Assembly: GCA_000165425.1 (NCBI GenBank)
Contig: CT868011.1
Location: forward strand, 62,001-126,000
From: Paramecium tetraurelia
Lineage: Eukaryota
Direction of reading: 5' to 3'
Length of the DNA: 64,000 bases
Numbering within the stretch: the stretch's first letter is position 1; each line of letters starts with the position of its first letter. Both the position numbers and the translations under genes were made by a program. The notes below the pieces were generated by a model, which saw only the letters and a list, made by a program, of their open reading frames with translations, was not told where the DNA came from and searched no databases. Positions 1-47,740 of this stretch are shown here, piece by piece.

Positions 1-3000
1 TGATACACATGCATTACTACCATTAACGTGAAAACCAGAGGCACAAGTTTAACAAGTGCTTACACCTGTACATGTTAAGCAAGGATATTAACATTAAGTG
101 CAATTAGGTAAATCTGGGTAATAGCCTGGAATACAAGTTAAACAAGTAGTGCTGTTAGAACATGTTAAACAATTGTTTGTACATCTATTACAAGAGTTAG
201 GAGATGGGTCTGCTAAATAAAATCCATCATAACAAGAAGAACATTTATCAACTCCAGTATCAGTGCATGCCTTACAGGAGGAATTGCAAGTTGATGAACA
301 ATCAGCTCCATAAGAGCCATCAACACATGATGTACAAGTTGTACCATTTCCAGTGCAGTTCTTACAAGGAGCAGTACATTTAGTACAGGCGGGTCCAGCA
401 TTGTAATATCCTCCATTGTTTTCACATTCTGGTTGATCAGTAGTACAATTTTCAACACAATTTCTGCTGCAATCATCTCCAGGCACGCATGCTTTGCATT
501 ATCCAGGATTGGCTGGATCTGGATATTTGTTTGCAGCTGTGCAAGTTAGGCATGTTTGAACTTCATTAGAATAGGTACAAGTTGCACAATCTCCAGAACA
601 ATCATTTTTACAATTACTTCCGCTTTTATAATAGCTACTCCAACACGCTGTGCAAGTCGTATCATCGTCACACGCCAGACATCCTACTTTACATTAAGTA
701 CATGTTGAAGAAGTTTGATAAAAGCCAGGGATACAAGAATCACATGTACTTACATCTGGATCACAGGTCAAACAATGACTAGTACATTAATCACAAGAGG
801 ATCCATTCTTTATGAATCCAGGTCTGCACCCTTGGCAAGTGTTTGAATCAGTACATGTTGTGCACTTATCAGGGCATTTGTTGCAAGTGGCAGGTAAAGT
901 TGCTGAAGGATAATAGCCAGTTGCACATACTTAGCAGTTAGTATCAGATGTGACACAGGTTGTACAAGAAGCACTACAAGGTTGACATTGATTACTACTT
1001 GGAAAGTAACCATCTTAACAACTTGTACAATGTGAAGCAGATTAGTTTGAGCAAACTTTACAATTAGCATTACAAGGCTAGCAAGCATTACTATTATCAA
1101 GATAATAACCAGCAAAACAATCTTAACAAGTTCCATTGCCATCAGAAGAATAACTATTGCATGGGAAAACGAACACATTACAAGTATCAGTTGTTATATA
1201 AAATCCAGTAACACAAGTTTGACATTTTGTTGGTCCGGTTGATTTGCAAGTGGCACATGGTAATTGACATTGAGAACATGTGTTATCATTAATCAATTGA
1301 GTTGAACAAGTATCACATGTGTCAGAGGGACACTTGAGACAGCCTACAGCGGAACATTCTTGACATTCTTTGCTAGCATTAAGAAAGAAGCCATCGCCAC
1401 AATCAGTACATTCAGTGGCTGAATTACAAACATTGCATGGTTTTGTACATTGTTAGCAAGTAGTTGTGCCATTAGGATAATATCCAGGTAGACATGTTGT
1501 ACAGGAGGCCTTTGTACACAAGAGACAATTGCTAGTACATTTTTCGCATGTATTATTATCAGGATAGTATCCGCCAAGACATTTGGAACATTCAGTTTTA
1601 CTATCTGGGCATTCTAAACAAGATGGTGAGACTAGACTGCAAGACTTGCAATCTCCAGAATCAAGATGGTATCCAGTGATGCAAGATGAACAATTTCCTG
1701 GATCAGTTGAAGAACATTTTAAACAATTGTTAGGACAAGCTGAACAAGTCGTCCCAGATAAGAAATATCCATCGATACAACTTGTCTTACATGCTGTTTA
1801 TGTAGTACATTAGAGACATGGTAGTTAACATTAGGTACAAGCTGCTCCATTTTTATAAAACCCATCAATGCAACTTGTGCAAGTATTTTAATCGGAACAA
1901 GTTAAGCATGCTTTTGGACATTAACTACAGGAATTGTTGTTTGGGTAGTATCCGGGGGGGCATGAATCGCACTTTGTTTGGTCTTCACCTGTACATGTAA
2001 GACAAGGGAAAGTGCAAGCTTTACATGTATTATCTGCCATTTTGACAAATCCAGGAACACAGCTCTCACATGTAGTGGGATTTCCTGAACAAGTTGAACA
2101 AGCATAACTACATTAATCGCAACTACCACTGTTGCATACATATCCTGTCATGCAAGTAGTACAGGTAGAAGCTGATTCACATGTGACCATAGGACTCACG
2201 CATTGTAAACAATTATAGTGAGTTGCATCTACTTAATTTTTATAATATCCACTAGCACAATCAGTACAATTATCAGCAGCAGTGCATTTTGTGCAAGAGA
2301 GTGGACACACTGAACATGCATTATTATTAGGATAATATCCATCGATGCAATTTTAGCATGAATTAGCTGCTGTGTCACAGGTCTTACATATATATAAGCA
2401 GGGTTAACATTGATCGGATGCTAATGATGTATTTTTCCAAAAACCAGTATCACAATTTGTACAGTTGTTTGCTGTTGTCTCACATTCCAAACATTAATTA
2501 GCACAAATTGTGCATTATTTATTATTGACGTAGTATCCAGTCACACAACTGCTGCATTCTACTGATGAAGTGGCACTGTTATATGTGCATCCAGTACAAT
2601 TATTTGGACATTTAGTGCATGTTGCTGCATTCAAATATGATCCACTAGGACAAGATAGACAAGCATTATTGCCACTTGCATTACAAGTGAGACATATACT
2701 TGCACATTACACGCAATTGCTATTTGAATCCATATAATATCCACTAACACACTCAGTACCAGTACATTTTGTATCTGATTCACAAGTCAGACAATGATTA
2801 GTACAAATAATACAAATATTTGTAGAGGATACGTAGTATCCATTTGGGCAGGCAGTACATTTAGTACTAGTCTTTTCACAAGCATCGCAATTGGCATCAC
2901 AAATGTTACAAGTTCCTGGGGTATTAGGATCTGTTAAGAAGTATCCTTTTTCACAAGTTTTACATGTAGTTAAATTTGTACAAGACACACAAGGATATTA

Positions 3001-6000
3001 GCATTGTTTGCATAAAAAGTTAGTATCATCCCAAAAATCACCAGAATAACATGATAAACACTGATCTCCTGAAGTTGAATTTTTACAAGTCTTACATGGC
3101 TCAATGCAAACCTTACATGTGTTTTACCCAGTGGGTTGATAAAATCCGTCATAGCAAGCCGTACAATAATTTTTATCGTTTTAAGAACAGGTTTTACATA
3201 AATTGCTACACTATAGACATTAATTGTTATTATTATAATAATATCCAGGAGAGCAAGATTAGCAATTCTTAGGATCAGATTAACTGCATGAAGTACATTC
3301 CGGAGAGCATTGGTTGCATGTATGATTCACATCGTCTAATACCAAACCTGAATCACAAACTGTACATTTAGTGGCATTATCAACACAACCATAACATGGA
3401 TTTGTACATTTGGTACAAGTAACTGCATTTGGATTAGTTTTATCTAAGAAGAATCCAATATCGCAACCAGTGCAGTTATTGGCATCACTGCATTTAGCAC
3501 ACTGAGCTGCGCAAAGAGTGCATACTTTACTACCATTGACATAATACCCATCAACGCAACCTGTGCATGAAGTAGCAGAATCACAAGCAGTGCAATTAAC
3601 TGGACACTCAGTACATGTGCCAGGAGCACTCAAATAATAACCTTGAACACAGGCTTAACAATCAGTTAAAGAAGCAACACAATTAGTGCATGGTAAAGTA
3701 CATTATGTACAAGAATTGTTATTTTCAGAATAATAGTATCCATAAACACAACCTGTACATTTATCTTAATTATTGACGCATTTAGCACAAGGGGCTTTAC
3801 AAAGATCACATGTAGTAGTACTAGATTAATAATACCCATCGACACAAGAGTCACAAGAATTGGCTTAGGTTGAACAAGTCGAACAAGGACTTGTACAAGC
3901 ATTGCAAGGACCATCAGCACCTCCACTTTTGAAGTATCCACTTTGACATGACGAACAAGTGTTAGCATCAACTGTACAAGCCACGCATGATTTTGAGCAA
4001 GCAGTGCAAGTGTAATTTGGATCACCAGTGTAAAAGAATCCTTGAACACATGATCGACAAGATGTGGCTGAATCTTTGCAAGTGGCGCAAGGTGATGTAC
4101 ATTAAGCACACGTATTACTATTTAAGTATGTTCCTGCATAACAACTTGTACAATTTGTAGCACTTGTAATACAACCAGCACATTCGTTGGAACATTATGA
4201 ACAAGTGTTATCATGTTAATAATAGCCTACAACACAGCTTTGACATCCATTTTAGGAACTCTAACATGTAGTGCATGGTTTCAAACAAATTTAACAATTA
4301 GAACCATCATATTCATACCCTGCAACACAATCTGTACACTTACCATCAGTACCGCAAGTGGAACAAGGGTAGGCACATTTAACACAATCAGTGTTGCTTA
4401 GATAATAGCCTGGAACACAGGATTAGCATTCTGTTTTACTAAGACAATTCACACAAGGAAATTCACAAGTGATACATTAATTAGTATTTAAGTATTTTCC
4501 ATCATAACATTTAGTGCAATTAGTTGCTGAATCTTTACATTCTTAGCAGGTGATTGAACAAACTGAGCAAGTATTGCTATTCAAATAAGAACCTTTTGAA
4601 CAAGCAGTACATTCAGTAGCTGAGGTCTCACAATCAGTGCATGTATTAGAACAGGGCAAACAATTATTATTATTAAAATATCTGCCAACATAGCATGCTG
4701 TACACTTAGTGGCTGATTCAACACAAGTAAAACATTTATTTGAACATTCGGTACATTTGTCTCCATCCTTGAAATACCCTGGGACACAGGAAGTACAGGT
4801 CTTGGCTGCACTTAAACATGTCAAACAATTTGCATCACACAAGTCACATGTGTTGGTAGCTCCATTTAAAAAGTAACCTGATGAACAGGATGTACAATTA
4901 GTTGATGAGTTTATACAATTTTCACAACTATTTGAACAAGCATTACAGGCATTCTTATTCAGATAGTATTTTGGTTTACAAGTAGTGCATGTGGTTCCAT
5001 TCAAACAGTATTCGCAATTGCTAACAGCTAGAGTACATTTTGAGCATTTAGTTCCATCAAGGAAGGTTCCATCTGAACAGGATGTGCAGGTATTGCCATC
5101 TGAACATGTCATGCAACTTACCATTTAGGTAGAACACAAGAAACATGCACCACTTTTTAAGTAGAATCCTGTTGTGCATTTTGTGCAATTTTATCCACTT
5201 GAACACTATTTGCAGTAACTGATAGTGTCAGAACATTGGATGCATTATTGTCCACTTGTATAGTAGGCAGCAGAAACACAAGAGGTGCATGTTGATGAGT
5301 CTGAGCAGGCTGAACAATTTTGATCAAGTGTTGTGCAAAGAATGCAACTACCATTACTGAGGTAGGATCCAACTGCGCATTCAGTACATTTGGTTTCATC
5401 TGGACAAGCGTTGCATTTGGTTAACTTGTCCTAACAACGAAGACATTGGTTATTATTCAGATAGTAGCCTTTGACGCAGGAATTACAGTATGTGCTAAAA
5501 AGTGATGAACATGAAATTATACTCCGATTGGCAGGTTGCACAATACTGATTGCAAGGCAAACAAGAGTTAAAGCTTTGGAAATAGGTGGAGTAGTCAAAA
5601 GTAGTTTGTGCTCCATTGAATTCATCTGGAGTGTAGGTTGGGAATACATTGTAATATCCATCGGAACAAACAGTGCAGATACCAGTGCTTATACTAAAGG
5701 TTTTACAATTGTTATTTTAAACACATATTCCACCTTAAATTAAAATATTCATTTACCTATTTGAGTCGATTACCCATTGCATTGGAAACACACTATGGTT
5801 GAGCCGTCTGCTGAAAAACCTCCTCTTACACAGTTGGTATCAGGGTGTTTAATACAAGTTCTAAAATTATTATTTTTGATTACAATCCGATTTGATAATA
5901 TCCATCCGAACATGTTACATAATTGCATGTATTTGCACTTGTGCAAGTACAATACCCTCCAGCTATCTGCTAGCATGGCATACAGATCTGTCCATTAAAG

Positions 6001-9429: not shown

Positions 9430-9870
9430 TATTTTAAATTATATAAAAAATGTTTAGAAATAAAATAGTTGTGATCCAAAAGAAGCCATTTTCATATAAA
9501 TCTGAACTAATCTATTCTGATAAAAGCGATTAAATATCATTGAAATAGCATTTAAATGTATATTTAGTGAATTCTCGGAATTTTATTAATTAGAAAAATA
9601 ATTAAATGGATGAATATCAATATATTCATGAGAATAAGAATTGGTAAAAGATGATGGTTCAATCGACCATTTTAGTTTCTAAAGGAATTACTTCGAATTA
9701 ATTTTACTGTAATTTATTAAGCATTATTTCTAATTTATATTAAAAGCTGTTTATTTATTCTTCTATCAATTGCTGTTTTTTCAAGATGATTTCTATTTTT
9801 ATGCCAAATTTCTACAAAGACCTTGAAATTTATTTGAATAATGGCGATTTAATTTAATTCTTTTTAAATT

Positions 9871-12192
9871 ATGAGTTCGTTAGGACCTTTGATAGTGATA
9901 ATTTTGGTTATTATAATTGGAATTCTTTGGTACTTTATACATTTGATTGCACAAGTAAGCATACCTATTCTACATTTAGGGGTTCTCATAACTTTATAAA
10001 GACGAGTCAGCCTTTTTGAGTGATCAATTAAAGGCATTGTTGGGAGTGGATGATATACAACGAAATTCGTACCGTCCGTCAGTAGAACCACTATATATAT
10101 CAAACATAGTTGACCTAATTGTATCTTCCATACGAGGATTATGGCTTGGTCAATTGTTATACATACTTTTGCTTTTGTTCCTATTTTTCATAGTCGTTGG
10201 AGTTTTCTTCATTGAATAACCCTTCTAATTCCTCTTCAATATGATTGTGGGAGTCGTGACTGTGTCGTTATTTTCACATTATATCATTTAGACGAATGGC
10301 AAGGGATTAACCCGTGCGTTGATATCGGTATGATGTAAAATTTAAGAAGGCTTCATTTTCAAAGGAGGATTGTTATAGTTACATGTATTCATGCGGTTTC
10401 GCAATGCTGAGTCTACTTATAAGCTTATTTTTGGGGATGTATGTCCTAATGTATTATTTCAACCTTGCCATTTGGGGAGGGGAATTAAAATAAAAAGATT
10501 ATGAAAAAATATCAATTCTAATGATAGGGTACCTAATGGGATTGCTAATGGGTGGATTTATATACAGAGAAGGTTTATCATTAATGAGTAGATCATTTAA
10601 AACTGCAACTATTGGATTAATTAAATCTGATGTGAACTTAAGTGTTGGAAACAGCAACATCTCCTAATTGACAAGATTGACATACATGGTTTCTCAGTAG
10701 ACAGGCAATACTCTAATAAATTACTTAGATATTGGATTTGTCTTAGTATTTTTGTGTTGTTCAGTCCTCACATTGTTCTTGAATAGTGCTGAAGTTTTGG
10801 AGAGTGAAAATAAAAACATCTTTATGTTGGGACCAATCTATTTGATATGTTTAGGATATTTCGGATCCATCTGTTGTTATCTGTTGAGAACTATGTGTAG
10901 AGATTCATAAGCACCCTCTTTTACTGCTATTAATGTTAGGTGGCAAGTCATAATGGGAGCTTTGATCTCCTTCATTATCTTGGTTACATTCCCATTTAAC
11001 TTTCTAATATCTCAATTCACCTTGAAAGGAAATAATAGTCAAGACATTGATTTAAGTGGAAAGTCCTCTACTCATGCTTGCTGGTGTTACTTGTTGGGAT
11101 TGATATTTAATGTGATCCACATTAGTTTATTTGAATGGTATACATCTCATGGATGTTCAAAAGTTCGAAATCTCGTAAATTATTCAATTCAAATAGGGAT
11201 TAGCAACGAGTGATCGCATTATGTCTATGAATCTAATATATTCCAACTATTTAGGAGATTTGTTCTCTGCAATTCCTCTGGTTCTCATGCTCTTATTAAT
11301 CACAATTGTTTATTCCATTCAGGGATTTGCTGGATTGCTATTTGCTGCCTCTGGGTACACATCTGTCTTTATCATCTATGGTATCATATACTAAATTGGA
11401 TGCAATTCATCAGAATCATACAAACTCACTTGCTTTGTGCATTTCAAATCTGAAATTTAAGGAAGAATTTTTGCCATTTATTGGGAAGCTAAGAATTACA
11501 TGATCTATCTTAAATCCACAAATGCAGGAGCTCTAACCTTGATCTCAATAGGATTTATAGGATCACAGTTGTATCAACATCCTGGAACATTGGGTTCTCT
11601 TTTTACTCATTACAAAGGAATCATTGGATTATTGATAGGATTTACATTAATGTTTGTCTGCAGAGGCCTTAGTATATGGGCAATTATAAATATGGCCAAA
11701 ACCTATGTAAATTTATTTATATCGTAGTTCATTTGCCAACCCTCCAATGATTCCGAAGGCAAAATAAACTATTTTTCTGACAATCGTATCATTGAATTTA
11801 CAAAAGTTAAATACACTCAAAGTATTCTTCATGTGGCTTATAATATTCTCTTTCTGACTTTTACTTTGTTGTTAACAGGATATTTGTATGGCCAATAAGG
11901 TACAATTGCTGCTATGATTGGCTCATCCATAAGCATACTATTGATTCAATATAATGGTTTAATCAAAGGGACAGCCCTTGAAAATGCTAAGATTTATAAT
12001 GAAAGTACTTCTTAAATGCTATTGATAGTTGAGGACAACAGAAAGACTTCCCATTATGTCATGTATGTTGCTGGAGATACCTACGCTTGTGCTACTGAGG
12101 AGAGTAATGCTTGTCCTTTAGTTGCTTATTTTATTTTCAGTTATTGTCTATTGATTTCTTGTCAAAATAAATTCACTTCAGCAGATCAATGA
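9871..12192 (+). CDS. Membrane H+-translocating pyrophosphatase (V-PPase) homolog, predicted catalytically inactive
   Basis: About 740-aa polytopic membrane protein with 4 inferred tiny introns, colinear by eye with plant AVP1: EWYTSHGCSKVRNL ~ EYYTSNAYSPVQDV; KGIIGLLIG ~ KVIIGLLVG; GTALENAKIY ~ GGAWDNAKKY; VAGDTYA ~ VIGDTIG. Confidence 0.85.
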
Positions 12193-12655
12193 ATTATTAT
12201 ATTAAATTCCAACATGCAATATCATTATCAAGTTTTTAATCTCCCATAGAGCATAGTAGTAGACTATAATTGAATAAATATTCTCAAAGCAGAAGGAGAA
12301 GATTTAAAGATGATCTTGCTAAAATCAAATTAACTATACTGGAGAAATATTCAAAACTAATACAATTATAATCAACAAAAGAAAGAGGTTTAAAATCAGA
12401 GTTAATGTTTGGATATCTAATTAAAATCAAAAGGAATCAATCATACAAATTTGTATTTCTAATTAAAAGAAAAAATCTTCTTTCACCTAGGTTATTATAA
12501 AGAAATTTACAAAATTTAATTTCATAATTAATTATTCATTTGAAAAATCTATCCTGCGTTAGAAATAAAAGTAGTTAATAGATTATCATATAATATTATA
12601 GTGAATTGAAATTCAAATAATTGTTTATCATACATAATAAATATTAGTTCAAAAA

Positions 12656-27869: not shown

Positions 27870-31441
<3,572 letters not shown>

Positions 31442-31554
31442 ACATACACAATTTATAACTAAGTTATTTTTTATTTCAATCAATATATTTTTATCATTAT
31501 TATTAGATTTAGAAATCATAATAGAATTAGATAATAATTTATTGTTATTTGAAA

Positions 31555-32412
31555 ATGGGTTGTTGTTTAAATTCAGAGAGAAAGAATAAGAATGAAATAA
31601 ACTTGTATTAAACTAATAAAGAATGTAACTAAATGATAAACGAACTTTATAATTAAACATGGAGAAAAAGGGATGTGCGAGAAGAGTATAAACTATTTGT
31701 AAGAGATGTTCAGCTTAAAACAGAACTAAAAAAGAATTATAATTTATCCTTCTAAATGGCTGCTGATCTTGCAAAAATATGCAATTGTTTCAGAGAAGTT
31801 AGAGGGGATGGAAATTGCTTTTATACTGCTTTTGGATTTTAATATTTGAGCATGATTTTGATGAAAGATCAACCAAATTAATTTGAAGAATTTACTAAGA
31901 AATATGCTAATATAAAGATGAAAATATTTTCAAATAATTTTAATACCGAAGACGAAAAGATCTAGGCTAACCTAAGAACAGAATTTTTCAAAATTTTAAG
32001 TCAATTAAGAATGATAAAAGATAGGCAAAAAAGGAAAGAAGCATTTATCAAGTAATTCTAGTGTTATGAGGATTAAAAAGACATAGATTGTTGCTTATAC
32101 GGATTATCAACTATTTTTTTTAGGAACCTTGCTGACCAAGTTGTTGATGAAAATAATTTGGCTGAGCTACTTTATGATAGAGAGAATTTGCTAATTTGGG
32201 AAACAGAGTGTAACAATAATGAAGTGGTAATATCGGCCCTGGCTAAGAGCTTAAAAATGTATTTATATTCATAAAATTTAAGAAAAATATTATTAGTATT
32301 TTTTTAAAATAATGGATTTGAATTGAAAAAGTACGAGGAGTAATATGTAGACTAAGTCATATTGTTGATTAAACCAGGTCATTACAATATTGGATTATAT
32401 TAAGAAAACTGA
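31555..32412 (+). CDS. Otubain-like OTU deubiquitinase (peptidase C65) with MGCC N-terminus
   Basis: FREVRGDGNCFYTAFGFQY Cys box and LLIKPGHYNIG His box. Confidence 0.88.
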
Positions 32413-32658
32413 TTTACAATCTATATCATAAGGAATAATATATCATCATTAAATGGGCTTTTAATTAGCTTTATTATTTGTTTTCCATTTAGAACCGAAT
32501 GGGATTTTTAATAATATATGATATATTATTTTTTTTACCAAAATAAAGGTGCATAATTGCGGTTTAGTGTTACCTTTTACAATTTAGGTTTATGCAATTA
32601 TTCAAAATATTAATATTTTTATTAATTTGTAATTACTTTTCATAAATTATTAGTGTTA

Positions 32659-35106
32659 ATGTCCTCTAATATTTTTTAGAATATATGTCGAATTCACAAC
32701 AGTGAAGTAATTGCTATTAAATTGTCTGGCAATAAGTAACTAGATGATTATCTAATGTGTGTCTATTGCTTAACTGGAAATGTTCAATAATCTGTTGTAC
32801 CAATAAATGAGATCTAAAAGTTGTATGAAACTAAATCTACAATTATTAAATAGTTGGAAATGGAAAAGCACTAATTAATGAAGACATCTCTTGGCAAGTT
32901 AATGGATACCTTAACTCAGTTGAAAAACGATTTAAATGTTGAGTTGGATAGAGGAATCCGATTGATCGATAACCAATTGCAGATAGAAAATCAAAAATCT
33001 CATTGTGAGCATAATGCTCCTCAAGATAGTGAAAAGACATTAACTGATTATATTTAACTCGTAGTTAACAGTGAATTTAGTTACTGTTAATAAGAAAGAA
33101 AAGAGGATTAATTTAATTGGATGTAATCACTATCCTAAGAGTTAAAGAGATTCAACAAAGTATCAGAAGTTTAATACTGCTATTTCATATTGGAAGATCT
33201 CAAAAAATAATATTTAATAAAAGATCAGAATATTAAGTCTTAAAATTAGATTCAACAATTTTACTAGTCGATTTCTCCTCAATAATAAAATGAGAGGACT
33301 CCTAAATTAGATTTTAATTGCAAGATTCACGGCAAAGAAATTATAATGTTTGATTTGAGTCCAGAATCAGAGAAGAATAGACGATTATGCTGTGTGGAAT
33401 GCATGCCATCTCAATATGTTTCATTAAATAAGGCATAGGAAAAATGGTAATAGTTTGAAGCCAAAAAATGTAACTATTTCTAATAATAAATGTTTGATAA
33501 AGAATAGCAATATGAATAAGTCTTAGAATAAATCATTAAGATTGAATATTAAATTATCGAATAGGTAAAGGATCTGAGAGTAAATTTCGAATAGAACCTA
33601 TTGATGATGAAATAAAAAAATGCTTTAAATCTCAATTTAATTAATTAAGGTTTTTAAAATCTAAATTAGACTGAATTAATGGAAAGAGCGGAAATTTTAA
33701 GTAAATCCGAAGAAATTTAATAAAGAATAATATTTTAAGAATATTAGGAAATCTAAGATTCTGTTCTGCGTTAGTTGAAAGAATAGATATAATAATTATA
33801 TCATTATTAATAAAATTTATATGATAATCTAAGATCTACATTATGTAATTCTCAAGAAATAAGCAAAGCAACAAGTTAATCAGATTAATAAAATAATATC
33901 AATAACATACAGTATTTTATTACGGAAAATCGAGAAAATTCTTATAGTAATTAAATGGAATTTTGTACTCAAAGATCTCAAGAATCTCTAGAGTGGAAAA
34001 ATGGCAATGAAAACTAATTCAATAATCTCAATTAATAGAAATTACATGTCATAAATGAAAATCGTTAGACTAGAAGCGCCTCCGCTTAGGTAAAATCTAA
34101 AATGAAGGAGAGTGACAAATAAATAATAGAAGAACAGCAAATAGAATTTTAAAATGAAAATAATTATGAGTTAATTGATAAATTTCCTGAAGAAAAAAGT
34201 TGTCATGCAATCTCATTTAATTATGATAACCAATTAATGATTAGCGGTTGCTAAAATGACATAACTGTTTGGGAAATCAAAAACGAAAAAATAACCAAAA
34301 AATAGCAATTAGAAGGCCATACCAATTTGGTGATATCTTTGTTTTTCAGTTTTAATAAAAATGAGTTCATATCTGGTAGTACGGATAAATCGATTAGATA
34401 TTGGTAAGTTATGGAGAATGAATGGGTTTGTGCATAAGTTTTATTAGGCCATAAAAGATAAATTGATTGTTTATTATTAGATAATAAAGGTAACTAAATT
34501 ATATCATGCAGTTGTGATAAATCAATTAGAATTTGGAGAAAAAATGAATAAATAAAATGGATATAAGTTCAAGTGCTAACAAATCATTAAGCCTATGTTC
34601 GATGTATTAGCTTCAGCAAGTCGTAGGAATAGTTTGTATCTTGTGGAGAAGATAAGATGATTATAATTTGGGAAATTGATGAATTCAAAGAATGGAAATT
34701 GAAATAAATAATTAGGAATGAAGACTATGGATATAGAATATGTTTTGTTGACGATAATTTATTAATATGGTAGCCAAGAAATATAAATAAGGCTATCATC
34801 TTTTAGTTGGACAGCAACTTGAATTAATTTAACTAGAGTAATTAAAATATTTAATTAATTTAATCAAGTAATGGATATCAAAACTTTTTCCCATCAATTT
34901 ATAATGAATAAAAATAAGTAGTAATTAATAAACATGGAAGATATGTATATGTTTTGAAAAAAGAATTTAACAATACTTTTCTGATTTCTTAGGTGATTGA
35001 AGTTGGTCATTATTGTAATTATGGTTCATTATCCCCAAATGGCGAGTATTTGGTAATATGGGACGAAGGATCGAAAAACTTTTAAATTAGAAAAGCCAAA
35101 TTCTGA
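32659..35106 (+). CDS. WD40-repeat protein with two N-terminal CxxH...CxxC motifs and coiled coils (815 aa)
   Basis: Intronless ORF; GH...SGSTDKSIRYW and GH...SCSCDKSIRIW repeats at 34170-35100; CRIH..MCVYC and CKIH..CCVEC. Confidence 0.88.
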
Positions 35107-36471: not shown

Positions 36472-37653
36472 TCATATTTCTTCATCAACTATTTCATAAC
36501 TTCCTGGTCCTAATTCAGAATATTTCTCATCCTTAAACCTTTTTGATTTACCAAAACTTGAATTTATGTTACTTTTTTTAATATATTCAGATTAACAAAG
36601 AAAATCTTTAATTTCATAACTACCAGGTCCTAATGGGTTATTGGAGTTGGATTTTTTCTCCGAATTTGACTTTTATAGGTTTTCATTTTTCTTGTCAACC
36701 TGGTCAATCTAAATGAAATCTTTAATCTAATAGCTTCCAGGACCTGGAGGATTAAATTTTACATGAAGGCTCCTTCTGATTGTTTCCATCTTCCTTCTTC
36801 TTGCTGCTTGTTTGATTTACATTGCTGATTTCGGTCTCTTTTGCCTTTCTGATTGTTCTTTGGTTTCTTTTTATTTCTCTAATTCTTAGATGTATTTATC
36901 CTCTTTCCTATTGTAAAAAGATCTTACCATGACTTTAGGCTTAAGGAGTCTTTCAATTCTATCTATTTTTTTTCTATTTACTTTATAATCAATTTTATAG
37001 GCCCCAGGTCCTGGAGTTATAAAGTGAGAATTAGGCTGTGATTGATAGCTTGCAGTCCCAATAGAGATGCTTCTGCAAGACTTTTAGTTTAACTCATAGG
37101 TGCCAGGACCTGGGGATTGCTGATGGTATTCACTATTTTGTCTTGAATTGAAAACAAATGTTTTTGATTTTATTTTCTATATAATATTGTATTATCCAGG
37201 TCCAGGATTTTAGAATTTTTCTAACTATTTTCTATGACTTTTAGAAAAGGTAGCGCAAGGACGATTTTGTTGTAAGTGAGCTGGAAATTAAATTTCGTAA
37301 GAACCAGGGCCTACACTCTTTTTTGATCGTTAAGAATTTTATCTATAAAAGGTGTATGAATTAGAGGTTTCAGGAAGAGACCAGACTTGTTCTTAAGAGT
37401 TGATTCTTATTCTCTTATTTGAATATGGTTTATTTGTCATTGCTGACCTATTTGACTATGCAGTCAATCTCAAATCATTAAAGAACTTATTGACATATGG
37501 CTAACTGGAAGCCACTCTAATATGATGATCAATTTTGACTACATTTAAGCAACTGGAAGAATCTCATCTCCAAAGTGAGCAGCTAACATTAAAATTATTG
37601 TTTCTTAGTTATAATGTTAATTAATTTATTTGTAGTAATTTTCTTGAGTTCAT
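36472..37653 (-). CDS. PGPG-repeat (SHIPPO/ODF3/STPG-like) ciliary microtubule-associated protein
   Basis: Seven (P/L/V)GPG(S/Q/T/A)Y repeats. Start uncertain: ATG 37653 is followed by an in-frame TGA; the alternative is ATG 37440. Confidence 0.8.
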
Positions 37654-37900
37654 TTATTTTAGATTTGATTAATTCACCAAATTTATTGGGTTTTCTATAG
37701 TTTAATTATCAAATTTAAAGGGCTTTTCAATAAAGTAGCTATTTCAATGTGATAAGTATGATATTTTGGCTGTCAATAATTTCTTACTATAACTTCATAT
37801 TGATTTATAATTTATATTTATAAATACGACCTATGGAGGTTTCAATTAGTTTGTTTTATAGAATTTCATTGAGATTAATAAAAATTAAAATTCGAAAAAT

Positions 37901-40900
37901 ATGTAAAATGATCAATAATAAAACCAGAAAAATTACCGATCCTAACAATTATATGATTCTACATAAAGTTCCAACCCCAAAAAAAATAAAATCAAAATTC
38001 TCAATTCGACTTCAATGGATGTTGAATAATCTTTTTATAATTTTTAGTTTCATTAAGAGTCATAGGAAGTTAGAAAAAATGATTAGATGAATTAACAATT
38101 GCCATATTAGTATCCCTAATAATAAAAATAATACGGATAGCAATAGAATGATGTAAGGAATTCTTAAAATGAGTTTTACTAATAATCGAATAATTTTTCT
38201 AATTAATAGTAGTAATATTTTCCGCCATATTATTAGAATTAATAACAATACTACTCTAATTAAGTATAATAATAGTTATATTAATAATAATAATAGTAAT
38301 AACAATATCAAGGCTAATAAAGGATAAATAGTTTAGAATTTTCATAATAGTAATGCTAAACTAAATTTTAATAAAATACATAAAGTAATAGTAATTGGTA
38401 TAATTAATAAAATAGCTCTTCTAATTTTGTAGAAATTTCATAAAATAATCCAACAACTATTAATTCTTAATAAATTTTTTAAATCCCTCAAGTACCTATT
38501 TAAGTTACGACCTGTCTACCAAAATTGAAATAAGATGATTAGAATAAACACTCATGTCATTAGTTAATTGACTATTTTTTTTCGCTTGCAGACATCGAAA
38601 TAAAAGTTACAAATATTGATAGGTCAGTTTTAGCTTATTTTGACGAAATTAAAAATAATTTGGGCGATTTAAACTTAAACATCTAATATCCTACAATAGA
38701 TTAAACGCAGTACCTTAATGAGAATCTTATTTATTAAGTTTATGAACAGCCAGAAAACAATATTTCAAGATAAGAAAAAATGACTATTTTACTAAGCCAA
38801 GTAATTGAGAAATTTTTTATTGAAGCTGAAAAGCAATAAGTAAAAATTAAGATTCACGAATAAAAATGTCAATATAAAATAGACTCATAATAACAAATGG
38901 TAGCAACTAAGTTTTATCAAAATTTTAAAACATCTTGGGACAGCTATGTTGTTTTGATTGCATCACTTAAATCTGAATTCGAAGCAAAATAAAAATTTAA
39001 ATTATTAAAAAAACCAAGAATGCATGAATTATTTTGCAAAGCTCTTGATGTAAGAGAACCAATTATGTTTTTGGCCTCTGACATTAACCTAGCTTTTTTT
39101 CAAAAGAATCAAATATTTTTAACAAATGCTATGGACATTAAAAGATAAGTTAATTCAATAATAGTAATAAACTATGTATATGATGTTAACTTGAAAATTC
39201 ATGAGCTATAGTAAAAACTTGATGACTTTTTCTAGAATCCCTAGATCATGAAGAATGTCAAAGAGACTTTTGATATTGATTGTTCTATACCAAAGGATGT
39301 GGATGAGATAGATAGAAGCATAAGAAAGCTGAAAGAATAAGAAGAATAATTTGAAATTATAGTTACAAACCCAATATCAAATGCTCAAAATAAAGGAAAG
39401 TATTTAGTAGAGGCTGAGATGCAACTATGGATAGAGGGCGATCAAACAGAATATGTTATTATGTAGAAACTGTAAGCCGTAAAAAAGTAATTGTATGAAA
39501 TCTACAATCCCAATTTAATTATAAAGGTAACAGAATAGGATAAAATAAAATTGTGGAACTAATTTTTAGGCTAAGAATTTGAAAAACAACATAATTTAAA
39601 AGAATGCATAACGAAGTAGAATAATATTGAATTGACCATAGAATTAAATGGAAGATAAAATGCTATTTTGGAAAAGTAACAGAAAATTTTACAATATTTA
39701 GAGCAATTTAAATGTATTATATTATATTGCTAATGTGACAAAGAAGTAGCTCTTGTATTACAGAGTAAGGAATTTTAATTTCAAAGATTATTAGTTAGTA
39801 CATTAATAGAAATTGCTTAAGAATTTGGACAATGTTTGATTAAAATGATCGAAGTTAATTAAAAATTATAATTGGTAGTTGAAGTTTATTACAATCAAAT
39901 TTAATACAAGCAAATTGTTGTTAGCCAAAAAATTTAAACCTTTTTTGAAAATTTGGAATATTAATATGTTGAATTTGACTTCAAAGAATTTTTAAATTTT
40001 ATAGAGATGAAAGAGATTTCATTTTAGGAGACATTCCAAGTTGTAGTATCAAAGTTTGGTTAATAACCAGGAACTTGGATTGTTGGAAAAAGAGAGAGTT
40101 TAGAAGAAGTAAGTAGCTTTTTGTTTTAGTTTAATTAATCAAAACAAGAAGATTATGTTTCTGATTCCATTGATTGTGATAATAAGCTGGTTTTTAATAA
40201 GCTAAAATAATTATAATCACAGTAGGCAAATCTTAATGCTGGTGATCGTAATGTAATAATTAGTTTTCCTTAGGAAAACAAGATTATGATTTAAGCACCT
40301 GAAAAATTGATTAAATAAGCAAAAGATAAATTTGATAAGTAAATTAGGGAACTAAAAAGTTAAGTTAAAACTAAAATTTGTGATTTTTCTGACAAAGAAA
40401 TCAAATTCATAGACAAAAATTTTTAAGCATAATTGGAATAATTAAAAAAGAATAATGAAATACAACTTTTTAAGACATCTCAAGTTCAAGTATAAGAAAT
40501 ATAAAATAGCTCCATAGCATGTACATTGCTATATAAAAATAAAAGTATACAGATAATTTATGCTGATATATCTAAAATTCAATGTGATGCAATAGTAAAT
40601 TCTTGTAATAGTAAAATGTCTTTTGGTGATCATTTACAATTGAGTGGTGTTGCCTAAAGTATTTTCGAAATGGGAGGGACTTAATTTTAATCATTTTGTT
40701 CTGATTACATAAAAAAGTATAAGGAATTATAATAAGGAGTTGTGTGCACATACAAAATGCCTGCCCAAAGATAAATAAAGTATATATTGAACGTAGCTAC
40801 TCCTATTTATTCTAAAGGTGATTAAACAGATGATGACTTGAAAAAGATTGAAGAGAACATCAAAGCATTATTCAAAGAAATTAAGAACTTAGACATAGAA

Positions 40901-42576
40901 ACTGTAACCATTCCTATCTTCGGAGGAGGAGCATGCGGTTACAGTTTTAATTAGGCTGCAATGGTGGTGCTGAATACTACGATAAATCAATTATATGCTG
41001 AGAATAACTCAATTAAAAAAATTTACATTGCAGAGTTGACTGATGTTAAAATCGACTAATTGACTAAAATACTTAAATAGCTGTTAGAACCACCTTTAGC
41101 ATAGAGAGAAATATAATATTAATGGTAATGGTAAGATCGTAGTAAATTTAAAGATTATGATGATGAAGAGATCAACAAATAAATAGATGAAGCATATGAA
41201 CAATTTTTACTTACGGGCCAAGAGTAAAATATATTATTGAAGTTTCCATACTCTAAAAAGCCTGGAACTCACTAGATTGATTTTCAGAATAAAACTGTTA
41301 CTGATATTTCTTTATCGACAACAAAAGCTTTAATCACAAAACTGGTCTCTAATTCAAAAAAGTATTTTTTCGGTTATGAGTAGGTTGATGATTAGCTAAA
41401 TGAATACATAATGATCTAAGAATTGAGCAATGTGACCTAGTTTGATATCTTTTATAAATAACATTATGTAATAATTAAGCAAGGAGAAATGTATTAAATG
41501 AATTTAGAAACTCAATACAAGAGATAAATACAGAAAACAAAATACTAAACCAAGAAAGATCCTTCAAAATAATAATATAATTACTTAGTTGATAAATAGT
41601 ATTAGTTTTAAGTAACTCAATATCAGGTTTCGAAATTGGTTAAATAAAAAAACAATTATGGACAATTTACAGTCTAATCTTTTAATGATAATCTCAATGA
41701 AACCATTATCAAATAAATTAAATAATATTTATCAAGGGAGACAACGAAGCTAGAAATTTATATTCCTAATTTACAAGAGGATGAAATTGAAAATATCTAA
41801 AACTAAATTTAAAAGACTGCTCTATCTAGTGAAGGGAAATTCCTTTCGGGAAATAAAGTTATAATAGAGTTTTTTAAAAAAAAATATAGTCAAATTTGTT
41901 AAATTATTGAGTAATTTAAAAGTAGAGGAAAATCGTATCCTAAAGAATGGATCCCTTAAAATGAAAATTATTTGAAAGTAGCTTTAAAATCCGATTCTGA
42001 AGAGTTCAAAAATATTTCAACTATGTTTAAGAAAACTGATAGTGGAACCATTTATGAGATATATAGAATTTAAAATAAATCATTATGGGATAATTACATT
42101 AGTGAAAAAAATAAATTGATTTAAATATATTAATAGAATGGGGTTATCTTGAGTTAAATCGAAACTGAAAGGTACTTATGGCATGGAGTAAGAACAAAGC
42201 ACCCTAAAATTATCTATTCCGGTTTGAAGGAAGCATTTGATTACTCCTACAGTGATGTAAATATAAATTAGGAAAATTATAGGTTGGCTTATGGGGAGTT
42301 GGTATCTATTTTGCTGAAAAGGCTAGCTATTCTCGACATTATTCCTACAAATTACAAAAGGCTGATTAATAAGGAGAAGGTAGGCAAGTATTTTTATGCT
42401 GTTTGATAACAACTGGTAAAGTTTCGACAATGCCATAAGATAAAAATATCAAAAGACCACCTTAAGGGTATGATTGTGTGTCAGGTTTATCTAATGAAGG
42501 TAATAGTAATATATTTGTTCTTTACTCAATGGATGTAAGAAGAGCATATCCAGCTTATGAGATTATCTTTTCTTGA
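37901..42576 (+). CDS. Macro-WWE-WWE-PARP protein (PARP14-like mono-ADP-ribosyltransferase), about 1550 aa
   Basis: Macro: IIYADISKIQCDAIVNSCN...SGVAQSI...VTIPIFGGGACGY (40550-41040). WWE: YQWQWQD..FKDYD (41115-41530). ART: RIQNKSLW...YLWHGVR...GLWGVGIYFAEKASYSRHY...GYDCV...NIFVLY...AYPAYEIIF. One intron near 42257-42282. Confidence 0.92.
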
Positions 42577-46246: not shown

Positions 46247-47740
46247 TCATTGCTGTAGTTGATTTGTCTCCTCCCTTACTTCTATAAACATTTAAGCAGC
46301 ACTCTTCTCCCAATCCAACAATATTAATCTCACAAATAGTACTCCAGCACTTACTGACAATCCACAAGCCCATCCAAACCACAATCCTTTCAATCCATAA
46401 TCATGATAATATCCCCAATAGATGCCGGTTCCAATTCCAATTGCATATTAACATAGCAATTAAACATTTATGGTAAACGCTACTTCTCCCAAGGCACCCA
46501 AGAGATTTGCCAACATAATTTACATCCCACCAATCGTAAGAGTTGGTAAGAATAATTTTAAGTTGTTAGACAAAATAAGTGATGTTTCGTTGTCCATATA
46601 AAAGAGTGCAATCCATTATTATTTGAATACTACCAATAAGAAGCATAACAATATTCCAGTCATCAAGCTGGTTGCTAAATAATACCAAACATGCTTTCTT
46701 CCTATTTCATACTCTTGCTCTTTAAATAATCTTCGTATTCTAGAAGCAGCAGTCATGGCTACTCCCAAGAAAAACATATACAGTGCTTGGGCTGTAAAAA
46801 TGAGGCAAACACAAACGGAGAATTCTTCATACGTTAGCCACAATGCAAGAAACCCCATTATTTCAAAAGACACATTTTATAAATAATTTTTGAAGGATGA
46901 GTGCAATAATCCATATGAAAATTAAAAAATTGATTTTAATGTTCTTCTGTCCCATTCAATCCAAGCAGGATGATTTTATTAATATTTGAAAATGTAAATA
47001 TACATAAGCAATGAAGATGTACAACTTGAAAAATTCTTACCCCAAGCTGCTCCACTTATGCCGAGGCCCAAATACACTATCAATTGTTTAGATAAGTAGA
47101 TATGCAAAATCTGTGTAAGTTAATGAATTGATTTACAGTAGTAAATATTTGTATAACTAAGACTGGATAATCAATGCCCATGGAGGTCAGGTAGTTCTTG
47201 GTGCAATCGAAGTATGTGAATGCGTATAGGGCTGGTAGCATTTCCCATACGTATTGAATAGCCTTTTCAACTACAATGCTTCAATATGAGAATGATAACC
47301 TACTTCGGGATATTGAATTAGGAGAGAATAAAGGTTGAACCAGCAATAACAGGGGTAATCAAAATCAGAAAAACTCCGTTCAAAAGCAACGATCTTTGAT
47401 AGGAGATCCCAATTTTCACATATTGATGCTATTTAAACTACCTAGTCATTATGGAGGTGATGCTAGAATTCATGCAAAGTAACAATCCTTTTACAAGCAA
47501 ATTCGCATATATTGTCCCAAAACCTATTCCAATCACATCTTCAATAACCAAATATCAATACTGTCTCTCCCTATAATGAAATACATATTCACCAACGTTG
47601 TAAGTATACTCAATTCCTAAATTTCATAAATCTCCATCTCATACCATTCCAATAACCGTGGGTAAAGCCTTCACCAGTAAGGTTTCGAAACTGGATATGA
47701 ACTGAGAAAACGTTGTGATTTCAAGACTCTCCTCTGCCAT
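46247..47740 (-). CDS. MATE family multidrug/toxin efflux transporter
   Basis: Polytopic membrane protein with MATE-like segments GIGFGTIYANL...IGISYQRSLL, GLGISGAAW, GLWIVS; several tiny introns. Confidence 0.82.

Follow-up and report, generated by a model that had tools for sequence, protein, structure and literature searches.

Membrane-bound pyrophosphatases (M-PPases) adopt a fold of 16 transmembrane helices arranged in two concentric rings, and the interface of the functional homodimer is formed by helices 10, 13 and 15. Their hydrolytic centre is described, in the available part of PMC6882861, as comprising 12 acidic residues, three lysines and one asparagine. The working enzymes are reported there, and in the accessible portion of PMC9408878, to be dimers whose subunits communicate and display half-of-the-sites behaviour. 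Among ciliates, PdVP1 and PdVP2 of Philasterides dicentrarchi and their relatives are presented, in the part of PMC8055999 at hand, as typical type 1 and type 2 pumps, and the same source reports VP1-like and VP2-like pumps in Paramecium tetraurelia. Here we describe a gene at 9871-12192 on the plus strand of a 64,000-nucleotide stretch of P. tetraurelia macronuclear DNA (assembly GCA_000165425.1, contig CT868011.1, positions 62,001 to 126,000 of the forward strand; hereafter the window), which is already present in databases as GSPATT00031277001. Judging from profile comparisons and a predicted model, its product belongs by descent and fold to the M-PPase superfamily (Pfam PF03030 H_PPase, TC 3.A.10). 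We consider it quite probable that this M-PPase-derived protein of 735 amino acids is a selected, non-catalytic and non-pumping pseudo-pump.

The similarity of the window protein to M-PPases emerges at the level of profiles and is missed by single-sequence Pfam searches. A profile of 12 family sequences, searched against the Protein Data Bank (PDB), recovered the H+-PPase of Vigna radiata (4a01/6afs, E 5e-38), with profile positions 102-654 falling on chain residues 145-700, as well as the structures from Thermotoga (4av3, E 6e-19) and Pyrobaculum (8b37, E 1e-13), while a profile of 15 family sequences matched the Vigna structures with E 5e-21. Alignment of 15 family members to eight canonical pumps with hhalign gave a probability of 99.45% and E 4e-22 over 530 columns. 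The public predicted model of the database version of the protein (P0084; predicted template-modelling score 0.81, predicted local distance difference test score 0.68) superposes on a cluster that is 100% PF03030 with template-modelling scores of 0.84/0.89 over 692 residues (span 7-751), both sides of this comparison being predicted models. This superposition is consistent with the 16-helix M-PPase fold. These results bear out the end-to-end colinearity with M-PPases that had been proposed in an initial annotation of this DNA, made by eye from the sequence. The structural cluster nearest to the P0084 model carries the label of a K+-stimulated Na+ pump. In language-model features, the clusters nearest to the Paramecium protein are H_PPase clusters, mostly from Myxococcota.

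A profile of three Paramecium proteins, searched against 1.84 billion representatives, gave 69 matches, mostly short fragments from unknown organisms, including one protein each from Tetrahymena (E 4e-15) and Ichthyophthirius (E 1.6e-06) and a single canonical pump, P0066 (E 3.6e-04). A word-index search with the family alignment returned 16 proteins, consisting of the Paramecium members and ordinary prokaryotic pumps; the same search with the Tetrahymena protein returned its own cluster only. The Pfam H_PPase model is matched by the Tetrahymena relative (E 1e-30) and the Ichthyophthirius relative (3e-16), and by two large exon pieces of the window gene in the correct model order (E 0.0059 and 5.6e-05; 15.7 and 22.4 bits, the gathering score being 29.7). 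Full-length orthologues gave no Pfam match even at E<=10, so that the expected H_PPase match was found with profiles and not with a single full-length sequence in Pfam. As the exon pieces and the profiles do match, this miss looks like a filter or version effect. A precomputed table lists PF03030 for the full-length members P0001-P0003 despite the absent Pfam match, and such proteins could escape routine scans. A phmmer search of the PDB with exon 4 alone found no M-PPase, only chance matches at E ~1.

For the catalytic and ion-translocating residues, the roles (hydrolytic centre, coupling funnel, ionic gate and nucleophile pair) were taken in Ballesteros-Weinstein numbers from the available part of PMC6882861, in which the Vigna anchors are 5.50 = R242, 6.50 = D294, 11.50 = D500, 12.50 = K541, 15.50 = A680 and 16.50 = K742. 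The hydrolytic-centre Asn is printed as 12.53 in that part of the paper; its own anchors put the Asn of GNTT at 12.43, which is the position used here. Residues were mapped through a 28-sequence MAFFT alignment, cross-checked against HMMER and hhalign alignments, with the following correspondences between canonical pumps and the window protein:

Hydrolytic centre, acidic: D5.61 to T231; D5.65 to D238 (kept); E5.76 to S249; D5.77 to Q250
Hydrolytic centre, acidic: D6.35 to Q260; D6.39 to N264; D6.43 to N268; D11.57 to S491
Hydrolytic centre, acidic: D15.61 to E674; D16.31 to D698 (kept); D16.35 to C702; D16.39 to E706
Hydrolytic centre, basic or polar: K5.58 to K228 (kept); K15.64 to K677 (kept); K16.38 to E705; Asn 12.43 to K518
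Ionic gate: S5.43 to L210; 6.53 to F274; S6.54 to V275; E6.57 to F278; 16.46 to V713; K16.50 to I717

The 12 acidic residues of the hydrolytic centre are represented in the window protein by two Asp, two Glu and eight non-acidic residues (T, S, Q, Q, N, N, S, C). The pair that activates the attacking water, D6.43/D16.39, reads N268/E706, and is Ser/Phe and Gln in Tetrahymena and Ichthyophthirius. R5.50 (R217) and K12.50 (K525) are retained, and K5.58, which HMMER and hhalign place on R225 or K228, is basic in either case. From the ionic gate set solely D271 remains, which is probably D6.50 after a four-residue deletion in transmembrane helix (TM) 6. On the DNA, these elements lie as follows:

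10563..10643 (+): TM5 remnant, residues 216-242; R217 (R5.50), K228 (K5.58) and D238 (D5.65) kept, D5.61 = T231
10683..10751 (+): TM6 remnant, residues 256-278; D6.35/D6.39/D6.43 = Q260/N264/N268, E6.57 = F278
11133..11147 (+): EWYTS, residues 406-410; counterpart of the canonical EYYTS, with E406 and S410 identical in nine of nine family lineages
11389..11424 (+): counterpart of the DxxGPxxDNAGG loop, residues 484-495; D11.50 = Y484, D11.57 = S491
11467..11502 (+): counterpart of TDALDAAGNTT, residues 510-521; Asp to F511 and Y514, Asn to K518, with W515 an invariant of the family's own
12073..12135 (+): TM16 remnant; D698 (D16.31) kept, D16.35 = C702, K16.38 = E705, D16.39 = E706, K16.50 = I717

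The initial annotation had held that nearly all catalytic Asp residues and the late ion-gate Lys are gone, which agrees with the eight non-acidic replacements and with I717 at K16.50. It had located five degenerate motifs by eye, and four of these (YQIGCNSSESYK, IFAIYWEAKN, GDTYACATEE and the KTATIG...D stretch) fall exactly where the alignments place them; the fifth, offered as the equivalent of DNVGDNVGD, was four residues off, the true counterpart being QQTGNTLIN (residues 260-268). The two motifs that it regarded as kept, ExYTS and xNAKxY, are present as EWYTS and ENAKIY.

Comparison with whole canonical proteins points in the same direction. The window protein retains 32 of the 133 columns that are invariant in eight canonical M-PPases, whereas each canonical sequence, when left out in turn as a control, keeps the full 133 out of the 133-160 columns that do not vary among the remaining seven. 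At the 16 invariant canonical Asp positions it has three Asp, two Glu and 11 non-acidic residues. Among the 15 full-length members of the family, no acidic residue other than D271 and E406 is invariant, and hence no other register can supply a carboxylate-rich site. Scores against the NCBIfam equivalog models are likewise low, with a best value of 19.5 bits for P0084 (cut-off 912) and 68 for the Tetrahymena protein P0073 (cut-off 651.9), while the canonical control P0082 scored 801 bits against the cut-off of 651.9. The features of a functional M-PPase (EC 7.1.3.1 / 7.2.3.1), namely the carboxylate-rich centre, the Asp pair, the ionic gate and a score above the NCBIfam cut-off, are therefore lacking. 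We conclude from these residue comparisons that the window protein would neither hydrolyze pyrophosphate nor pump ions.

This degenerate protein belongs to a family that is maintained across several ciliates. In P. tetraurelia, the window gene is accompanied by at least two paralogues, GSPATT00034733001 and GSPATT00037559001, and between two and four copies are found in each of P. primaurelia, P. pentaurelia, P. octaurelia and P. sonneborni. Twelve Paramecium sequences, the window protein among them, represent five species and three paralogue lines; every one has 735 amino acids, without a single insertion or deletion, and 428 of the 735 positions are invariant, at an identity of 67-69% between two paralogue lines. 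Synonymous sites are presumably strongly diverged between these Paramecium species and paralogues. The same losses are seen in relatives from three Tetrahymena species and from Ichthyophthirius, and the canonical motifs (DNVGD, GNT[TV], DNA[GR]G, GDPxKD and DN[AG]KK) are absent from 68 of the 69 representative matches, the exception being the canonical pump P0066. When 16 family members and eight canonical pumps (24 rows, none of the pumps from a ciliate, with fragments left out) were placed in a maximum-likelihood tree, the family formed one side of a branch with 100/100 support; the family's stems measure 0.81, 1.58 and 2.4 changes per site, and the tips within Paramecium 0.004-0.085. A metagenome scan for DNA of the relatives gave 136 pattern matches, none of which was confirmed. 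The 12 indel-free copies, the relatives in other ciliates and the polyadenylated RNA described below together argue that the window gene is not decaying, and, on these comparisons, the family is held under purifying selection, as the initial annotation had supposed in calling the gene intact and selected.

One P. sonneborni protein departs from this pattern. P0004, with 277 amino acids, is a partial copy that aligns to positions ~78-288, carries an eight-residue insertion and is changed at 21 of the 119 positions that do not vary in the 12 intact copies; it is probably a duplicate undergoing decay, and shows what decay in the pseudo-pump family looks like.

The window is AT-rich (GC content 0.24-0.38); in it, TAA and TAG are read as sense codons and introns are tiny. 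When 9871-12192 is read with genetic code table 6, coding runs over four frame segments with three frame switches, and five GTA..AG introns of 25, 22, 22, 21 and 24 nucleotides (nt) bring it into one frame. The spliced product has nine TAA and two TAG sense codons, no internal TGA and one terminal TGA. The uninterrupted reading frame of about 740 residues given in the initial annotation thus had both ends exactly right, with the ATG at 9871 and the TGA at 12190-12192; it was mistaken as to continuity and, slightly, as to length. A second in-frame ATG lies upstream, at 9841. The 735-residue model aligns without gaps to three proteins of the same length from P. octaurelia (97% identity) and P. 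sonneborni (83% and 67%). The gene is composed as follows:

9871..9954 (+): exon 1, 28 amino acids; start ATG and first transmembrane helix, the start agreeing with the orthologue MSSLG
9955..9979 (+): intron 1, 25 nt, GTAAG..TAG; absent from the X7 RNA contig (place 9955, 25 letters)
9980..10327 (+): exon 2, 116 amino acids
10328..10349 (+): intron 2, 22 nt; 22 letters absent from the X7 contig (place 10327, equivalent after left-alignment)
10350..11174 (+): exon 3, 275 amino acids; TM5 and TM6 remnants and EWYTS, with the weak Pfam H_PPase match of E 0.0059
11175..11196 (+): intron 3, 22 nt, GTAAA..TAG; if kept, a frameshift and a stop ending at 11213
11197..11706 (+): exon 4, 170 amino acids; TM11 and TM12 remnants
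11707..11727 (+): intron 4, 21 nt, in frame and stopless in code 6; its residues absent from 11 of 11 other Paramecium proteins
11728..12004 (+): exon 5; includes ENAKIYNE (11968-12003), with D15.61 = E674 and K15.64 (K677) kept
12005..12028 (+): intron 5, 24 nt, in phase 1, introducing no stop when kept; same comparative basis as intron 4
12029..12192 (+): exon 6; TM16 remnant (12073-12135) and TGA stop

Removal of intron 3 joins SKVRNL to GLATSD, which matches all orthologues, and from this we infer its splicing; more generally, the removal of introns 3-5 is deduced from the conserved protein. The database model P0084 (GSPATT00031277001, 751 amino acids) has a 19-nt intron 2, which adds one Lys, and retains introns 4 and 5 as coding; it falls into the same 90% cluster as the orthologues of the window protein. 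Introns 4 and 5 are multiples of three without a TGA, and their retention would add seven and eight in-frame residues, those of intron 5 directly after ENAKIYNE. Being in frame and free of TGA, such retained forms would evade premature-stop surveillance.

The gene is transcribed. In two runs of oligo-dT RNA-seq, 76 of 19.2 million and 29 of 22.4 million reads mapped to 9700-12400, all of them within 9882-12156 and none in the flanks. In run X20 the first mate is mostly on the minus strand, as for plus-strand RNA in a common stranded library. The few raw reads of X20 and X21, 58 nt long, are too short and too few to show splice junctions. The X7 RNA contig of 2282 nt spans 9882-12210, with precisely introns 1 and 2 missing (25 + 22 = 47 letters), which indicates that it derives from spliced RNA and backs the 22-nt form of intron 2. 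A contig from run X4 was discarded as evidence of transcription because it is unspliced and extends into intergenic DNA. With the orthologues and the oligo-dT reads, both relatives and expression are in place for a gene that the initial annotation had wished to distinguish from a young pseudogene.

Taken together, the basic earlier observation of a dead M-PPase homologue at 9871-12192 is confirmed. The pseudo-pump would be a 16-helix membrane protein that descended from an ion-pumping M-PPase and retained its fold. It would be unable to bind Mg-pyrophosphate in the canonical manner, to activate the attacking water or to hold a cation at the ionic gate, and its action would instead depend on the scaffold, most likely in the form of a membrane dimer that does not pump, paired with itself or with a working H+-PPase of the same cell. 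Several points weigh against this account. The homology is carried by profiles and a predicted model rather than by a solved structure, and full-length members have no Pfam match. The assignment of D271 to D6.50 depends on the alignment, HMMER placing D271 four residues off D294, and so does the register of TM16, which comes from MAFFT and from hhalign, where GDT is paired with GDT, the HMMER alignments ending at chain residue 700. R5.50, K5.58, D5.65, probably D6.50, K12.50 and K15.64 persist together with Glu at 15.61 and 16.39, which makes a reduced or different ligand site possible. Finally, expression is low and the X7 contig retains introns 3, 4 and 5, the third of which would truncate the protein.

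The persistence of such residues leads to the best-surviving alternative, in which the window protein is a binder, sensor or transporter whose old cytoplasmic cavity, now lined with Ser, Thr, Asn, Gln and Lys, accommodates another ligand such as a metal-free anion. Within Paramecium the former active-site stretches are indeed well conserved, with no variation at 13 of the 16 canonical Asp columns; K228, K525, K677 and D238 persist, and TM12 holds the family's own invariant W515 in nine lineages. However, conservation at the replaced sites (56 of 98) does not exceed that elsewhere in the protein (345 of 605), and Paramecium and Tetrahymena have the same residue at only 14 of the 98 replaced sites and at 97 of the 605 others, so that a new site shared by the family is not visible. 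Thirty columns show the same residue in every lineage; most of them are occupied by glycines and packing residues, and the set also includes R5.50, K5.58, D271, E406, S410 and W515. We regard this alternative as unlikely for the window protein; for the family as a whole, conversion of the old active site into a new conserved site is ruled out by the two comparisons of replaced sites.

It is very improbable that the protein still hydrolyzes pyrophosphate or pumps ions by means of an unorthodox active site. The name H(+)-exporting diphosphatase given to the family by UniProt and NCBI, the retained fold and a few retained key residues speak for it. Against these stand the loss of eight of the 12 acidic Mg/pyrophosphate ligands, the alteration of both nucleophile-activating Asp, the charge reversal of K16.38 to Glu, the change of the gate Glu and Lys to Phe and Ile and scores far under every NCBIfam equivalog cut-off. 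Passive ion leakage along the old path, one of the roles suggested in the initial annotation, is made unlikely by the hydrophobic residues at the canonical gate positions in Paramecium (L210, F274, V275, F278, V713 and I717); the earlier interpretation otherwise holds as regards homology, residue loss and selection. A young pseudogene, that is, a whole-genome-duplication copy in neutral decay, is scarcely credible, for although RNA depth is low, the RNA contig retains introns 3-5 and the degraded 277-residue P0004 keeps only 98 of the 119 otherwise invariant sites, the frame of the window gene is intact after splicing, 12 copies lack insertions and deletions at only 67% identity between paralogue lines, relatives exist in three Tetrahymena species and Ichthyophthirius, and the terminal branches are short.

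Returning to the pseudo-pump, the pattern at the replaced sites and the glycine and packing invariants suggest selection on the scaffold. Given the communication between M-PPase subunits and the reported VP1-like and VP2-like pumps in the same cell, our best inference is a dimer-based structural or regulatory role, exerted with itself or with a live pump. Within this reading, a heterodimer with a live pump is possible but the minor share, the remainder being a separate structural or regulatory role. Acidocalcisome-like or contractile-vacuole membranes, named in the initial annotation, would be a conjectural location for the window protein. The main text of a P. tetraurelia subcellular proteomics preprint (10.1101/2025.04.24.650466), in the part available, does not mention pyrophosphatase. 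A more general and decidedly tentative proposal is that the M-PPase scaffold has a second, pyrophosphate-independent job, which in oligohymenophorean ciliates would be done by a dedicated dead paralogue. For example, this paralogue may permanently serve as the 'silent' half of an asymmetric dimer whose other subunit is a live pump, in which case the half-of-the-sites asymmetry that is kinetic in working M-PPases would be fixed in the genome.

The neighbouring genes in the window are of diverse kinds. An open-ended frame of 1916 residues at 1-5748 (-), with Cys-rich repeats and eight stretches matching Pfam VSP (Giardia variant-specific surface protein, E 3e-104), looks like a Paramecium surface-antigen-type gene. 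In the frame at 28029-31595 (+), a protein kinase domain (E 5e-70) precedes a long poly-Gln tract and a very long region rich in Glu, Arg, Lys and Gln. Further along are a WD40 propeller protein at 32413-35106 (+), a 1625-residue frame with a Macro domain at 37529-42406 (+) and a MatE transporter fragment at 46247-47170 (-), and no link between these last three and the pyrophosphatase homologue was found. Scans of the window for tRNAs and Rfam families found nothing.

A literature search for inactive M-PPase homologues or for these accessions found nothing, most subscription journals lying outside its coverage; this fits the earlier statement that no such class is known to be described in ciliates, for which no paper was found. 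The available part of a review on microbial pyrophosphatases from 2024 (PMC11210485), searched by term, does not use 'inactive', 'non-catalytic' or 'pseudo' in that sense. In UniProt/UniRef and NCBI these ciliate proteins are entered under the names H(+)-exporting diphosphatase or vacuolar proton pyrophosphatase, and with dead paralogues named as pumps the counts of pyrophosphate-driven pumps in ciliate genomes would be inflated. These observations bear both on the pump field and on ciliate annotation. Paramecium and Tetrahymena are tractable organisms, with feeding for RNA interference, knockouts and tagging, so that the role of a pump scaffold without pyrophosphate, and hard-wired subunit asymmetry, are directly testable in them.

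The pseudo-pump may finally be set beside the described systems of the superfamily. PdVP1 and PdVP2 of Philasterides dicentrarchi and their relatives in P. tetraurelia, Tetrahymena and Ichthyophthirius, with which it is compared by description rather than by sequence, are candidate parents and possible dimer partners. The K+-dependent H+ M-PPase of Vigna radiata (4A01, 6AFS; PF03030, TIGR01104) is the best solved match to the family profile and shares with the window protein the predicted 16-helix fold, R5.50, K5.58, D5.65, K12.50, K15.64, the E-x-x-T-S motif and many helix glycines. Unlike this pump, the window protein has non-acidic residues at eight of the 12 hydrolytic acidic positions, a changed nucleophile pair and K16.38, Phe for E6.57, Ile for K16.50 and the four-residue deletion in TM6, and no TIGR01104 match is listed for it. 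The Na+ M-PPase of Thermotoga maritima (4AV3, 5LZQ) is also matched by the profile, and relative to it the window protein shows the same losses as relative to the Vigna pump; moreover, as it has no Glu at 6.53 (F274), it would lack the Na+ site of the Thermotoga pump.

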